Assembly: GCA_963830665.1 (NCBI GenBank)
Contig: CAWHNM010000024.1
Location: forward strand, 28,458-92,457
Reading direction: 5' to 3'
From: an uncultured Chloroflexia bacterium
GTDB lineage: Bacteria; Chloroflexota; Anaerolineae; Anaerolineales; Villigracilaceae
DNA: 64,000 nucleotides
Below, in pieces: positions 27,030-48,030 of this stretch. Made by a program: the position numbers and the translations under genes. The stretch's first letter is position 1, and each line of letters begins with the position of its first letter. Under the pieces are notes generated by a model that saw only the letters and a program-made list of their open reading frames with translations, made no database searches and was not told the DNA's origin.

Positions 27030-27081
27030 CCTATCCATTCGGTCAGTTGTAAACTCCCCCCTCGGCGGGGGAGTTTTTTTT
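27030..27081 (+). repeat. bipartite hairpin/terminator element, copy 1
   Basis: CCTATCC-attc-GGTCAG ttgtaa ACTCCCCC-ctcggc-GGGGGAGT T8; 15 nt after a stop codon. Confidence 0.8.
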
Positions 27082-27133
27082 ATTAAGGATGTACCATTAT
27101 TTTGTAAAAGGTGTGATCATTTCGGAGGCTGCC

Positions 27134-27262
27134 ATGCTTACTTGCGCTCTCATCTTCATAATTTTTCTTTGCATTGCTTTCCTGCCAATGGTTCTCGAAA
27201 ATCTTTCCTCGGCGGACCAATTAACTGAAATGGGTGTCCGTTTAGAAAAGCCAACCAAGTAA
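27134..27262 (+). CDS. candidate small ORF (42 aa, hydrophobic N-terminus)
   Basis: GGAGG 5 nt upstream of ATG 27134. MLTCALIFIIFLCIAFLPMVLENLSSADQLTEMGVRLEKPTK*. Below the ORF-track cutoff. Located at the head of the plus-strand array. Confidence 0.3.
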   Translation: MLTCALIFIIFLCIAFLPMVLENLSSADQLTEMGVRLEKPTK

Positions 27263-27276
27263 ACCCTGAAAACCAT

Positions 27277-27307
27277 CCTAGCCAATCGGATAGTAAAAAA
27301 CTCCCCT
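27277..27307 (+). repeat. bipartite element, truncated copy 2 (no 3' terminator arm)
   Basis: CCTAGCC-aatc-GGATAG taaaaaa CTCCCCT, then unrelated sequence. Confidence 0.6.
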
Positions 27308-27357
27308 ACCAATTGCTTAAACCGATCGACTGATTTCAGGATTTGGGATGGAACCAT

Positions 27358-28870
27358 ATGAAACGCATATTCTCCTCACTAAGCGATACAAGCATTCTGC
27401 TCCTGCTGGCCGCCTTTGGCGTGCTTATCCATACCCTGCTGAATGGGCAGTATGGTTTCCACCGTGACGAGCTCGACATTCTCATGAATGCACGCCAACT
27501 GGATTGGGGCTACGTTGCTTATCCGCCCTTTACTCCCTTCATCGCACGCATCGGGCTGGAGTTGTTCGGAACTTCCCTGCAGGGACTGCGTATCTTTTCT
27601 GCGATCGCTCAGGGGGTGGTTATGCTGCTGGCGGGATGGATGGCGCGTGACATGGGCGGCCGGCGCAACGCGCAAGTGCTGGCAGCCATTGCGGCCTATA
27701 TTGCACCGGTTGCGCTAACCTCGGGAACACTCATCCAGTACATGGCTTTCGATTATCTTTGGTGGGTGGTGATCGCGTTCTTCTTCGTGCGCCTGCTGGC
27801 AACGCAGGATCCCCGCTATTGGCTCGGTATCGGCGCCGGAATTGGGTTGGGGATGATGACAAAGTTTACAGTTGCCTTCTGGGTGGCAGGGCTGATCGTC
27901 GCGGTTCTGCTCAGCCCGATCCGCAGACACCTGCTTTCCAAATGGCTTTGGCTGGGCGCGGCACTCGCATTGGTTATTTACATGCCCAACTTGATCTGGC
28001 AGATCCGGCATGAATTCATCTCACTGGATTTCCTGAAAGCCATCCATGCCCGGGATCTGCAATGGGGGCGTGCGAATAATTTTCTACCCGATCAATTGAT
28101 CTCTTCAACCAATCCATTCACCCTGCCCGTGTGGATCGCCGGATCTGGGTGCGTGCCTGTTCTCCACTTCAATGAGACGCTTCCGCCCGCTGGTATGGAT
28201 GTTCCTGACCACGTTCACCATCTTCCTGATGGCACGTGGACGTTCATATTACGTTGCTCCGGCGTACGTCATGCTGCTGGCAGCCGGCAGCGCATGGAGC
28301 TTGAACTGGCTGTCGGGTCTCTCCGCAAGCCTGCGCCGGGCCGGGACCGGCTTATTGTCCGGCCTGGTGGCTGTGGGAGGGGTGGCCATGATCGTCATTG
28401 TTAAGCCGGTCGCTCCCATCAATTCTGAACTATGGAAAACCACCTCCAGACTCAACCCCGAAGTGGTCGAAATGGTGGGATGGCAGGACCTAACTGCCAA
28501 GGTGGCGAGCATATATCAATCCATCCCGGAAAATGAGAAAAGCCGTACCGCGATCCTGGCGGGAAACTATGGCGAAGCAGGCGCGCTTGACCTGTATGGC
28601 AGGGAGGTTGGTCTGCCAGCCATTATCAGCGGCGCCGACAACCTTTGGTATCGCGGTTTTGGTGACCCGGGACCAGAGACAGTCATCGTGGTCGGCTTCG
28701 AGCGCAGTTATGCCGGGAATTTCTTTTCTTCCTGTGAATCTGCTGGAAGTGTCACCAATCCCTACGGCGTCAGGAATGAAGAAAGCACCCGCCATACAGG
28801 ACTGTATGTCTGCCGCCAGCCGCGCCGGCCCTGGAGCGAGATGTGGCAGGATATGCAGTGGTTCCAATGA
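27358..28870 (+). CDS. glycosyltransferase family 39 (ArnT/PMT-like) membrane protein; frame break near 28150-28200
   Basis: ORFs 27343..28404 and 28172..28870. N-terminal ...GFHRDELDILMNARQLDWGYVAYPPFTPFI..., many TMs, soluble C-terminal domain. Confidence 0.7.
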
Positions 28871-28927
28871 CCTGTCCGTTTGGACAGTCCAAAACTTCCC
28901 TTATGACAGGGGAGTTTATTTTATTTT
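28871..28927 (+). repeat. bipartite element, copy 3
   Basis: CCTGTCC-gttt-GGACAG tccaaa ACTTCCCT-tatgac-AGGGGAGT TTATTTTATTTT; starts at the stop codon. Confidence 0.85.
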
Positions 28928-28944
28928 GCGTATATCATCAAGGT

Positions 28945-45561: not shown

Positions 45562-45600
45562 CGCGAATGGTTTCCGGATAAATTCGTGACAGACGAGCGC

Positions 45601-47165
45601 ATGATGAACCGGAGTTTAATATCCACCATTTTGATGCTGCTATGTTTCTTTTTGCTGGCACTGTATGGTTCAGCCCACTCTGTTTCTCCCCAAGCCGCAA
45701 CCAGCTTCTGTTTCCCCTGAATTATTCTCCGCTGAGCGGGCAATGGCGCATGTCCAGGGGTTGGCACAAGCTGCACGGGTGGCAGGGTCTCCAGGGATGG
45801 AGCGGGCTGTGAATTACCTGGTCGAAAGGCTGCGAGACTGCTCGCTTGATCCTGAGATCCAGAAGGCCTCTTCCATAAAAGGGATGCTCCGCAATGTAGT
45901 CGTGCGTATTCCTGGTAGTCATCCCGGTAATGCACTCCTGATCGTGACCCATGTGGATTTCGGTCTCCTATGGCGCGGGAGATAACGCCAGCGGCGCGGC
46001 GGCGCTGCTGGAGGTTGCCTGCTCGTTGAAGTCGGGAAACCAACTCCAAAACGATATCTTTTTGTTATTTGAAGACGGCGAGGAAGAAGGCTATCTGGGT
46101 GGATATGCTTTCGCGAAAACCGATCCATCGATCAGCACCGTCCGGCGTGCGATCGGGCTGGATACCGCTGCCTGGGGACCGGTGGTCTTGCTCCAGACAA
46201 CTCCTGGCAACACGGATCTCATCCGCGCCTATGCCGGATCAGTGCAGCGCCCGACTGCCTTCGGTTTCTTCGCGGATGCGGATTGGTATATCTCCCAGGA
46301 TTCCTCCGAGATCCAGCCGTTCTATGAGCGCGGCATCCCCGCTCTCGAATTTGAAGACCCGACGGCATTCAGCGGGAAACATTCCGACCTGGATATAGTT
46401 GATCTCGTCAAGCCGGGCAGTCTCCAGCAAATGGGCGAGCAGGTGTTGTCATTGGCACGAGCACTGGGTGACTCTGACTTGACCCTTTCATCAACTTCCG
46501 ATCAGAGCTATTTTACACTTTGGGGACTGGGGGTGGCGCATTACCCCGCGAACTGGAATTTGGTGCTGGCCATTCTTGCCGCCATTGGATGGGCGGCGTT
46601 GCTCGTAAAGGGGATCAGGCAGAGGGCATGCACTATGCGGGCAATCGCCCTTTCCATGCTCTTTTTCCTGCTGACCCTGGTTGGCGCAGCCGTGCTCGGG
46701 ATAGCCGGCAACGGATTGTTTGGGAGATTATTTCCGAACCCCAATCCGAATACCGGAAGCTACCTGATCCCAGCCAGCCTGCCATTCTTTTTAACAATCA
46801 TCCTGATCGTTGTATCTGGATATCTTTTTATTTGGGCAAGACTGCTCAAGAACCTGGGATCATTGGCAGTGTGGTTGGCCGGCTTGTTTTTCTGGTTGTT
46901 GATCGGCTTTGCCGCGGTAGCGATGCTCCGGGTGGGGGGTTACATTTTTGTTTTCCCGCTTCTGACGGCAGTCATCGCAGGTTTTTTGCCCGCCAAATTA
47001 AAGTTTTCAGGGATTATTCCGGCGGGGATTGCCACAATTTTGCTCGCTCCGAATGTGATATTGGCCTTCCTGGGAACCGGAATGCAAACGCTTGTGCTCG
47101 TCACCTTTCTGGCGGCTTTAGATCCGGAATTGTGGGTGCAGGCATATTGGAAACTGTCCACATGA
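45601..47165 (+). CDS. M28-family metallopeptidase fused to a C-terminal polytopic membrane domain; 2 frame breaks (~45700, ~45955)
   Basis: Signal-like start MMNRSLISTILMLLCFF; ..LLIVTHVD / GAGDNASGAAALLEVA / LLFEDGEEEGYLGG; then about 6 TM segments. Confidence 0.75.
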
Positions 47166-47199
47166 CCAGCGAAAAACTCTCCCAATGGCAGGGGATTTC
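47163..47199 (+). repeat. bipartite element, degenerate copy 11
   Basis: TGACCAG cgaaaaa CTCTCCC-aatggca-GGGGAT. Confidence 0.5.
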
Positions 47200-47253
47200 A
47201 CAAAACGATCGGATTATCCTATGGTCGTCATTTCCAAGAACAGGAGAATAAAA

Positions 47254-47919
47254 ATGAACAAAAAATTGCTTTTTGGTCTGGTTGTATTGCTGCTGGCTGC
47301 TTTGGCCTGCTCGTTCGCTTCCATCGCCCCTGAAAGATTTGTTGGTTCCGGGAAGGTTGGCAGCGAGACGCGTAGCGTAAGTGGATTCAGCTCGGTGACG
47401 CTGCAGGGCTCGGCCAATGTGGACGTCACTTTTGGGACGGTTGAGTCGGTGGTCGTCAAAGCCGACGATAACATCCTGCCCCTGATCGAAACAACCGTCC
47501 AGGGCGGCAGGCTGATCATAGCCACCAAATCGAACGCCAGTATAACCACCGTCAACCCCGTACGGGTCAGCGTCACAATGAAAACCCTCGAGGGTCTTAC
47601 CTTGAGCGGGTCCGGCAATATGGATGTATCCGGCCTGGTTGGAAAAGACCTGGCCATCGCGCTGCCGGGCTCCGGCAACATCACCGTTAAGGGTACCGCT
47701 AATAACCTTAACATCAGTCTGAACGGCTCGGGCGATATCATCTGCAAAGGATTGAAGGCGCGTTTTGTGACGGCCAGCTTGAACGGATCGGGGAACATCC
47801 AGGTCTACGCCAGCGAGAGCCTGGATGCAAAAATTCTTGGCTCCGGAGCGATCCACTACGATGGCAACCCCGCCAAAGTCAGCAAGAGCGTCAGCGGGTC
47901 GGGCAGCATTTCGCCCTGA
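47254..47919 (+). CDS. DUF2807-like (GIN-domain) lipoprotein
   Basis: AGGAG then ATG 47254. Lipobox LAALAC. GSANVDV, SGSGNMDV, GSGNITV, GSGDIIC, GSGNIQV, GSGAIHY repeats. Confidence 0.75.
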   Translation: MNKKLLFGLVVLLLAALACSFASIAPERFVGSGKVGSETRSVSGFSSVTLQGSANVDVTFGTVESVVVKADDNILPLIETTVQGGRLIIATKSNASITTVNPVRVSVTMKTLEGLTLSGSGNMDVSGLVGKDLAIALPGSGNITVKGTANNLNISLNGSGDIICKGLKARFVTASLNGSGNIQVYASESLDAKILGSGAIHYDGNPAKVSKSVSGSGSISP

Positions 47920-47943
47920 TCGTCAAGCAATTAAACAAACCAG

Positions 47944-47975
47944 AGGTCGAGCTTTTTTTGAGCGCGACCTTTTTT
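47944..47975 (+). terminator. intrinsic terminator
   Basis: AGGTCG-(15 nt)-CGACCT followed by T6. Confidence 0.65.
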
Positions 47976-47990
47976 GGTACTTCCGGTTCG

Positions 47991-48030
47991 CCTATCCATT
48001 CGGACAGGCGAAAACCATCCCTCCGGCAGA
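47991..48030 (+). repeat. bipartite element, partial copy 12
   Basis: CCTATCC-attc-GGACAGG cgaaaacc, then a degenerate second half. Confidence 0.55.

Follow-up and report, generated by a model that had tools for sequence, protein, structure and literature searches.

What function is served by a short composite sequence that recurs between the genes of one strand in a Chloroflexota genome? The question arises from a 64,000-nucleotide stretch of an uncultured Chloroflexia bacterium (assembly GCA_963830665.1, contig CAWHNM010000024.1), here called the window. A preliminary description of this DNA noted two successive hairpins, the second followed by a run of T's, close behind a series of stop codons, and likened them to repetitive extragenic palindromes and bacterial interspersed mosaic elements (REP/BIME) or to MITEs, small transposable elements of the inverted-repeat kind. 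The recurring unit does have two hairpin parts, but the first of these behaves as a DNA site and a third part, a TAnnnT hexamer, had been missed. The module is a tripartite unit of ~70 nt: an operator-like palindrome (hairpin 1), a terminator (hairpin 2) and a -10 hexamer. With moderate confidence, we regard it as an insulated, regulon-specific terminator-operator-promoter module of Anaerolineales that is under island-encoded, probably two-component, control.

That the composite element is real, as first proposed, is borne out by simple counts. In the window (54% G+C), the hairpin 1 pattern CCTGTCC-N4-GGAYAG, scanned with at most one mismatch, gives 14 matches against 0.14 expected. The hairpin 2 pattern CTCCCCT-loop-AGGGGAG gives four against 0.02, and the composite of both gives six against 0.00. 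A single scan of the composite pattern over 185,579 species-representative genomes returned 99 stretches from ~50 assemblies, and these motif-selected loci (8 kb each) together with the window yielded 122 distinct full copies. A covariance model (R1) was trained on 121 copies, six of them from the window (model positions 28866, 33968, 37148, 27025, 30399 and 31423). These six score 62.7-69.8 bits; the window copies at 40250 and 44611, which are outside the training set, score 45.2 and 40.2 bits. The preliminary description allowed that the copies might fail to align once scored objectively, but the model recovers eight full copies at 40.2-69.8 bits, all strong, on the plus strand between 27030 and 44683:

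27030..27097 (+): full module; hairpin 1 at 27030-27046, hairpin 2 at 27053-27073 plus T-run, -10 TACCAT at 27092-27097; 67.2 bits; lies 3' of the DUF2807 gene 26263..27015.
28871..28938 (+): full module; hairpin 1 at 28871-28887, hairpin 2 at 28895-28914, -10 TATCAT at 28933-28938; 69.8 bits; separates the PMT_2 glycosyltransferase gene from a nitroreductase and CPBP unit.
30404..30471 (+): full module; hairpin 1 at 30404-30420 (with an A.C mismatch), hairpin 2 at 30427-30447, -10 TATCCT at 30466-30471; 65.1 bits.
31428..31494 (+): full module; hairpin 1 at 31428-31444, hairpin 2 at 31450-31470, -10 TATTAT at 31489-31494; 62.7 bits.
33973..34040 (+): full module; hairpin 1 at 33973-33989, hairpin 2 at 33996-34016, -10 TATCAT at 34035-34040; 69.4 bits; whole-RNA fold -23.3 kcal/mol, z = -4.35.
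37153..37220 (+): full module; hairpin 1 at 37153-37169, hairpin 2 at 37176-37195, -10 TATCAT at 37215-37220; 67.4 bits; whole-RNA fold -27 kcal/mol.
40255..40322 (+): full module with variant hairpin 1 CCTGTCCACCTGACCAGG; hairpin 2 at 40278-40298, -10 TATTAT at 40317-40322; 45.2 bits, outside the training set.
44616..44683 (+): full module with variant hairpin 1 ACTGTCCACCTGACCAG; hairpin 2 at 44639-44659, -10 TAAGAT at 44678-44683; 40.2 bits, outside the training set.

A ninth copy once counted as full, at 41495, proves to have hairpin 2 alone. The CPBP gene 3' of the 44616 module likely has its true start at ATGAAAAAAG, after the Shine-Dalgarno sequence AAAGGAG. Rfam yielded no match at the gathering score over the window and none at the elements at E<=5, a tRNA/tmRNA search found none, and no curated RNA family or paper describing this module was found.

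The anatomy was compared across the 122 copies. There is no conservation 5' of hairpin 1, and the element therefore has a sharp 5' edge. Hairpin 1 is an 18-bp dyad, CCTRTCC-N4-GGAYAG(G/T), with variable loop positions; an A-rich spacer of 6-7 nt joins it to hairpin 2, which is 20 nt long in 112 of 122. T occupies four of the first five positions past the hairpin 2 stem in over 90% of copies, and GGGGAG is followed by five T's, nine information-free positions and T-A-t-n-A-T. The T, A and T of TAnnnT, 18 nt after GGGGAG, are present in 113, 113 and 114 of 122 copies when anchored on GGGGAG, and in 119 of 121 each in alignment A4 (121 copies); these positions were absent from the search pattern. 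In alignment A1, made of the copies first claimed, the same box, TATCAT/TATNAT, lies ~14 nt past the T-run in every copy, partial ones included, and leads into a ribosome-binding site and a start codon. The internal loops, like the 9 nt that precede the -10, keep a fixed length but are free in sequence. Such spacers are the product of promoter selection and not of repeat copying.

The location of the element just behind stop codons was correctly recognized. A co-directional open reading frame (ORF) ends no more than 120 nt upstream of hairpin 1 in 105 of 122 copies, and in 89 of these 105 it ends 0-40 nt upstream. Downstream of the -10 box there is a co-directional ORF in 117 of 122; its start codon lies 70-120 nt from the start of hairpin 1 in 87 of these, and start codons are found 8-58 nt past TAnnnT. 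The module is always co-directional with its flanking genes. ORF end, hairpin 2, box and ORF start succeed one another as expected where a terminator precedes a promoter. A minor feature is an extra degenerate hairpin 1-like unit 5' of hairpin 1, in roughly 6-9 of 122 copies against two expected; the form CCTRTCCACYTGACCAC, at a 16-17 nt offset, is seen in loci L005, L012, L043, L059 and L096. The same variant stands in place of hairpin 1 in the window copies 40255, 44616 and 47153, whose common form is CTGTCCAC(C/A)TGACCAG.

Hairpin 2 has a G+C-rich stem of 10-11 pairs, a loop of 6-8 nt and a T-run directly 3'. The stem-extension pair is A-U in 97, G-C in 40, G-U in 15 and A-C in four cases (Fisher p = 3.5e-20), and the seventh pair also covaries (C-G 85, U-A 33, U-G 15). 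In alignment A4, pair 29-52 is AU 70/GC 31/GU 11 and pair 37-44 is CG 57/UA 28/UG 14. Doubly compensated arms such as CTCACC/GGTGAG occur; cells changed on both sides number 97 against 33.6 +/- 12.6 in shuffles, and pairing is 94.9% compared with 41-61% when the partners are slid. The excess of G-U over A-C is as expected if the sense strand folds. The RNA of both hairpins folds at -20.7 to -27 kcal/mol (z = -3.5 to -4.75), and hairpin 2 alone at -14.4. The compensatory changes mark hairpin 2 as a genuine intrinsic terminator, and its predicted Rho-independent activity agrees with the assignment originally made. The suggested check for covariation thus gives a divided answer, compensatory changes in hairpin 2 but none in hairpin 1.

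The conserved hexamer TAtnAT resembles that of the housekeeping sigma factor (sigma-A-type), and TAnnnT is presumably an active -10. The exact -35 position is occupied by GGGGAG(T), the 3' arm of hairpin 2. No TTGACA is present there, and a consensus promoter scan of 26500-46000 lists no module promoter. With the terminator arm at -35 in place of TTGACA, the predicted promoter is probably activator-dependent. Other promoter assignments fare poorly. The TTGACA-like YGRC in the hairpin 2 loop was rejected as a standard -35, as its spacer to the -10 is 24 nt. A sigma-54 promoter, considered because TGGCAG-GGGAG-TTTT approximates TGGCAC-N5-TTGC, was rejected since A replaces the second G in half of the copies and there is no -12 GC. 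The MalT box, GGGGAKGAGG, has only six bases in common with GGGGAGTTTT.

Hairpin 1 presents a different picture. Its sole variable pair is GC in 36, GU in 33, AU in 32 and AC in 21 copies, with the two positions varying independently (p = 0.20), and the A.C-mismatch copies (17%) fold at just -2.8 kcal/mol. In 95 hairpin 1 sites devoid of the family hairpin, the distribution of TAnnnT has a sharp maximum at offset 62, with 20 cases against ~1.5 per offset. Two palindromes, window 50905-50922 and one near position 4078 of locus L031, have a -10 at this offset on either strand, and each -10 faces a gene. The sites at 23626 and 50905 lack a co-directional gene upstream that could carry hairpin 1 in its 3' untranslated region (UTR). 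A dyad that lacks covariation, is retained with the -10 where the terminator has decayed and serves both directions is best described as a DNA operator at about -65, and the behaviour of hairpin 1 is that of a DNA site, not of a hairpin in RNA. We infer that it binds a protein. A LexA box was considered, as hairpin 1 fits the CTGT-N8-ACAG of the E. coli SOS box, and was rejected: half of the half-sites are CTAT, the site is ~65 bp upstream and not over the promoter, and there are no flanking SOS genes.

Degenerate copies in the window, about eight at 13-25 bits, are matched by the model at 61255-61332 (-), 23621 (+), 50900 (+), 47986 (+), 41491 (+), 47148 (+), 27272 (+) and 16616-16692 (-):

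16620..16687 (-): promoter-only copy; hairpin 1 at 16687-16671, -10 TAAACT at 16625-16620; 5' of the receiver-only response-regulator gene 16604..16242; 13.3 bits.
23626..23693 (+): promoter-only copy in a divergent intergenic region; perfect-palindrome hairpin 1 at 23626-23643, -10 TAAACT at 23688-23693; 21.6 bits (+), 25.4 bits (-).
27277..27310 (+): truncated copy; hairpin 1, A-tract and 5' arm CTCCCCT, nothing more; 14.0 bits.
41506..41535 (+): family terminator hairpin alone (ACCTCCCC..GGGGAGGT plus T-run), without hairpin 1 and without -10; 17.6 bits.
47153..47225 (+): degenerate copy; variant hairpin 1, within which the stop codon of the upstream ORF falls, hairpin 2 3' arm GGGGAT, no T-run, -10-like TATCCT/TATGGT; 16.3 bits.
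47991..48058 (+): promoter-only copy; hairpin 1 at 47991-48007, hairpin 2 decayed, -10 TATGAT at 48053-48058, offset 62; 17.8 bits.
50855..50972: divergent promoters on one palindrome; hairpin 1 at 50905-50922, -10 TATAAT at 50967-50972 (+) and TAAAAT at 50860-50855 (-), both at offset 62; 20.4 bits (+).
61259..61327 (-): near-complete copy; hairpin 1-like CCCAGCCATATGGACAGG, A-tract, CTCCCCC, decayed 3' arm GTGTGAG, -10 TAAGAT at 61264-61259, Shine-Dalgarno sequence, ATG; 23.4 bits.

Most of the partial copies listed earlier are among these, but one at 62261 (-) has no model match at E<=10, and the copy at 50905 had escaped notice. The 16670 copy is on the minus strand, upstream of gene 16604..16242. 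Of the two copies thought to be truncated, 27277 lacks the 3' arm, but the minus-strand copy at 61288 is nearly complete and is not cut by the gene start.

If hairpin 1 is an operator, which protein reads it? The window array is adjoined by a candidate cognate pair, recognized through Pfam:

20699..23479 (-): candidate cognate regulator pair.
21325..23479 (-): PAS/HisKA_3/HATPase histidine kinase, in split ORFs.
20699..21328 (-): NarL/LuxR-type response regulator (Response_reg and GerE domains).

In other metagenome-assembled genomes (MAGs) the order is kinase, NarL-type regulator (81-84% identical), a hairpin 1 promoter without terminator, receiver-only regulator, and LiaF-TM-like and DUF2807 proteins. 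Orthologues of the response regulator (68-84% identity) are present in eight of the 99 motif-selected 8-kb loci, with a further relative at 57%, as compared with ~0.2 estimated for a single-copy gene. A reciprocal test used 80 metagenome loci picked solely by similarity to the regulator, 74 of them with enough downstream sequence. Hairpin 1 lies no more than 250 nt past the regulator stop codon in 62 of the 74, and TAnnnT is at 60-63 in 58 of these 62. By a tally of the match table, at least one full module (at least 37 bits) is found in 14 of the 16 regulator-anchored loci that are at least 8 kb long, mostly downstream and on the same strand. These associations point to the NarL-type regulator as the putative hairpin 1-binding protein.

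Several other features were seen near this gene pair. A truncated duplicate of the NarL-type regulator, receiver only and 136 aa long, lies just downstream at 20104-20514 (-). On the minus strand at 23581-23643, the 23626 palindrome has a perfect TATAAT just 26 nt past it, at offset 44 instead of 62; this box is upstream of the histidine-kinase gene and may reflect autoregulation in another geometry. In the promoter of the receiver-only regulator gene, the -10 is flanked by a 10-12-bp inverted repeat (16604-16650, minus strand; e.g. GACCTCGCTTGT-CATACACTAC-AAGCGAGGTC), and the same arrangement is seen in L030, L054, L063, L091, L093, L094 and most of L100-L179. The 3' arm of the repeat includes the Shine-Dalgarno sequence GAGG, and the repeat might serve as another operator or else form a hairpin in the 5' UTR.

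Hairpin 1 has possible counterparts among known operators. The Vibrio fischeri lux box is ACCTGTAGGATCGTACAGGT (PMC4444344). The CCTGT-N8-ACAGG of hairpin 1 shares its outer bases, and hairpin 1 has the form of lux-box-like operators, dyads of 18-20 bp with conserved outer CTG...CAG and a variable centre; the independent variation of the half-sites (R/Y) fits a LuxR/GerE-type operator read as DNA. The LiaR/CesR box is a 16-bp inverted repeat, TCAGHCTnnAGDCTGA, with an adjacent A4 stretch (PMC4447274). Hairpin 1 followed by its A-tract resembles this in layout only, as its half-sites are CTRTCC/GGAYAG and the LiaR box sequence is not matched. As in LuxR/NarL systems, genes for a HisKA_3 kinase and a NarL-type regulator are close by, with LiaF-TM-like and DUF2807 proteins among the flanking genes. 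However, the operator is predicted at about -65 and not at -42.5, a terminator intervenes between it and the -10, and the targets are mainly CPBP proteases and assorted enzymes. The likeness of hairpin 1 to the lux and LiaR boxes is one of kind, and binding is a prediction. Hairpin 2 is similar to intrinsic terminators in its G+C-rich stem and T-run, its place just past co-directional stop codons and its covariation with G-U tolerated on the sense strand. It differs in its conservation over ~50 species, which extends to the sequence of the arms, to part of the loop and to the A/T tracts on either side, and in the constant 18-nt register that it keeps to a -10 downstream. Conservation of the family in sequence, beyond the structure shared by terminators, had been perceived correctly.

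These properties suggest the following mechanism. The module would end one transcription unit and start the next under common control. Hairpin 1, with its dyad centred ~65 bp upstream of the predicted start site, would be the operator for a dimeric LuxR/GerE-type regulator, for which the NarL-family response regulator of the two-component system beside the islands is the best candidate. The A-tract follows. Hairpin 2, AAAACTCCCC-loop-GGGGAGTTTT, would act as a Rho-independent terminator in the RNA of the upstream gene and, so folded, would prevent read-through into the downstream gene. After the fixed 18-nt stretch would come the sigma-A-type -10 TAtnAT, the Shine-Dalgarno sequence and ATG.

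It should be pointed out that a number of observations weigh against this interpretation. The motif-selected loci are an ascertained sample, and the terminator and promoter activities are both predictions from sequence. Conserved arms such as CTCCCC/GGGGAG are not required of a plain terminator, and their conservation is accounted for only if the G-rich arm is read as DNA too. The hairpin 2 loop contains a near-invariant G (116 of 121, 96%), in YGRC context, that has no explanation either; it could belong to a third GRYRG half-site, 21-22 nt after the hairpin 1 half-site GAYAG. The hairpin 1 loop is asymmetric (A in 84%, then Y-Y-Y), and a symmetric dimer site predicts no asymmetry. A site at about -65 is in the position of a class-I activator, and the lux box acts at -42.5. 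Linkage of the response regulator to the islands does not prove binding, and two MalT-like LuxR regulators are also encoded in the window, at 17068..19950 (-) and 41777..44604 (+). Large regulators of this type (AAA_16, TPR_MalT and GerE) recur in islands (the window, L076, L092, L064, L047 and L031). In L076 and L092 the MalT-like gene is directly 3' of a module; these regulators appear to be module targets and may be co-regulators.

The conserved hairpin 2 arms, the 3' arm at -35, the loop G and the asymmetric hairpin 1 loop would be compatible with a dedicated sigma factor, or with hairpin DNA that truly has two readings. As a tentative idea, which we consider doubtful, the same 20 bp might function both in RNA, as a hairpin that halts the polymerase arriving from upstream, and on DNA, as part of an activator- or sigma-dependent promoter, and would then represent an evolved terminator-promoter fusion. 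The DNA parts would be the G-rich 3' arm at -35 and the loop GRYRG, two helical turns from hairpin 1. Were this true, each unit of 1-4 genes would be a self-contained, insulated, plug-and-play expression cassette, and recombination between the ~70-nt modules would shuffle, duplicate and delete units in the CPBP-type protease island.

An alternative-sigma promoter class, in which the GGGGAG arm, 17-18 nt from TAtnAT, serves as -35 on DNA and as terminator arm in RNA with hairpin 1 auxiliary, is unlikely. It would account for the rigid 18-nt register from GGGGAG to the -10, for conservation of the arm in sequence and not just in structure, and for the purine-rich AGRKR that promoter-only copies retain at the -35 place. 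However, GGGGAG itself is lost in these copies while hairpin 1 and the -10 are kept, and the -10 looks like the housekeeping type. No sigma-factor gene is among the top 25 flanking Pfam families or the scanned window genes, although these scans were not exhaustive.

A mobile or once-mobile small repeat (REP/BIME, MITE or SPRITE-like), spread intergenically and co-opted as a terminator, was the interpretation first offered, and we consider it quite unlikely. REP/BIME elements have a 5' GTAG next to a palindrome, a high dispersed copy number and a REP-associated tyrosine transposase (RAYT). The module is multi-copy, sequence-conserved, palindromic and intergenic, with a sharp 5' edge and truncated copies, and the order of units between modules differs among genomes (window compared with L004). 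But its consensus has no GTAG, and strict-pattern matches number nine or fewer per genome and are clustered: five in 48 kb of a 1.75-Mb contig, four in 24 kb of a 1.35-Mb contig and five in 40 kb of a 304-kb contig. Nor does it have the terminal inverted repeats of MITEs, as CCTRTCC at one end and TAtnAT at the other do not form an inverted repeat, and the inverted repeats that it has are internal. The length-fixed, sequence-free loops and pre -10 spacer also argue against copying. No transposase family is in the top 25 flanking Pfam families, though no search aimed at RAYT was made. Small intergenic repeats such as SPRITE (PMC3049150) and Correia elements (PMC10969869) are likewise sequence-conserved palindromes near gene 3' ends, the former resembling terminators and the latter carrying promoters. 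The module, of low copy number and restricted to islands, is conserved across an order and not a species, with one consensus in ~50 species, whereas SPRITE is limited to S. pneumoniae and S. mitis. It is strictly co-directional, with a co-directional downstream ORF in 117 of 122 copies, whereas half of the SPRITE elements are between convergent genes (PMC3049150).

A purely RNA-level 3'-UTR element, with hairpin 1 as an RNA hairpin (stabiliser, or RNase or RNA-chaperone site) and the -10 incidental, is improbable, and we give it little weight. The position of hairpin 1 at 0-40 nt past stop codons, its strand-asymmetric loop and the A-rich linker, terminator and U-tail reminiscent of Hfq-type 3' modules are in its favour. 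Yet hairpin 1 lacks covariation and has A.C mismatches in 17% of copies (-2.8 kcal/mol), hairpin 1 and -10 are kept in divergent regions not transcribed from an upstream gene and serve both strands, and the strictness of the -10 register speaks against an incidental box.

An integron-like array with modules as attC-type recombination sites between mobile cassettes is very improbable. An attC site is a single long imperfect hairpin with a GTTRRRY core and an adjacent IntI. The same-strand array of unrelated accessory genes, the conserved imperfect palindrome after each unit and the variable unit order are reminiscent of integrons, but the module has two separate, independent short hairpins in place of one long R''-L''/L'-R' stem, its consensus has no GTTRRRY, and the units comprise 1-4 genes with their own promoter. 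No tyrosine recombinase is among the scanned window genes or the most frequent flanking families, in scans that were not exhaustive. That the element is simply the organism's generic terminator consensus, as the preliminary description conceded it might be, is hardly tenable, for although hairpin 2 is a good intrinsic terminator, terminators with unrelated stems are present in the same DNA (window 13147; L017, L022 and L032), the copies are clustered in islands, and hairpin 1 and the -10 are attached in fixed register.

The scan of relatives that had been advocated places the module, with one consensus, in ~50 Anaerolineales (Chloroflexota) species, with clustered copies and a co-directional strand bias. 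The assemblies are nearly all labelled Anaerolineales, Anaerolineae or Chloroflexota, e.g. Candidatus Villigracilis and UBA5797. Typical modules with Anaerolineales-like genes are also found on short contigs labelled Syntrophothermus sp. MAG169 (L005, L068, L090 and L092) and Bacteroidota MAG195 (L062, L095 and L096); both MAGs are from one project, and the contigs are probably mis-binned. Modules are concentrated in islands of 20-50 kb and are not genome-wide. In the window, the model finds none in the operon region of 1-13 kb; a long operon-like region without modules, 1-13200 (+), is closed by the ordinary, unrelated terminator at 13147, and its ORFs appear by eye to be of the cysteine-rich/hydrogenase type, with sensor-kinase fragments. 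Halovirus HF2 also has intergenic repeats that punctuate a same-strand array and supply promoters, but these belong to a virus of archaea, their promoter motifs are archaeal and AT-rich, and no integrated terminator or operator is reported for them (PMC8707807).

The genes flanking the modules are accessory and envelope-related in character. Downstream, 117 proteins fall in 90 Pfam families, with CPBP/Rce1-like proteins in 16 of 117, LiaI/LiaF-like transmembrane (TM) proteins in five and squalene/phytoene synthases in five. Upstream there are ten DUF2807 proteins, ten CPBP proteins among 105, six methyltransferases and five alpha/beta hydrolases. The association with CPBP genes suspected earlier is therefore an enrichment but not an exclusive link, and a tie to a single gene family was rejected on the same 90 families. 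In the window the modules bound units of 1-4 genes, which include nine CPBP paralogues, a nitroreductase, a PMT_2 glycosyltransferase, a methyltransferase, an amine oxidase and an SDR protein. Orthologous units in other MAGs have 66-77% nucleotide identity and a different order (window and L004). Paralogues of the CPBP/Rce1-like intramembrane protease are unusually dense at 25005-45581, where ten are Pfam-confirmed on the plus strand, and three minus-strand ORFs, at 50076-50825 (-) and within 60445-62257 (-), have a similar appearance. Several genes are split into overlapping ORFs in different frames: the MalT-like regulator 41777-44604 (+), in three pieces, the PMT_2 glycosyltransferase 27358-28870 (+), the histidine kinase 21325-23479 (-) and a membrane protein at 30505-31399 (+). 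These are either frameshifted pseudogenes or assembly indel errors.

Sludge, sediments and soils harbour abundant Anaerolineae, Chloroflexota that are for the most part uncultured, and to our knowledge almost nothing is known of their promoters, terminators and regulons. The components of the module are of known kinds; what is new is their fusion in fixed register and their conservation across an order. A natural case of terminator and promoter with shared sequence in fixed register would bear on how insulated expression parts are designed. The CPBP-type membrane proteases of the island may be immunity genes. For the Anaerolineae, the module would provide a conserved promoter architecture (-10 TAtnAT, no TTGACA, upstream dyad) together with a defined terminator, and a candidate regulon of 10-30 promoters per genome that is linked to a single two-component system and abounds in CPBP intramembrane proteases and in LiaF-like and DUF2807 proteins.

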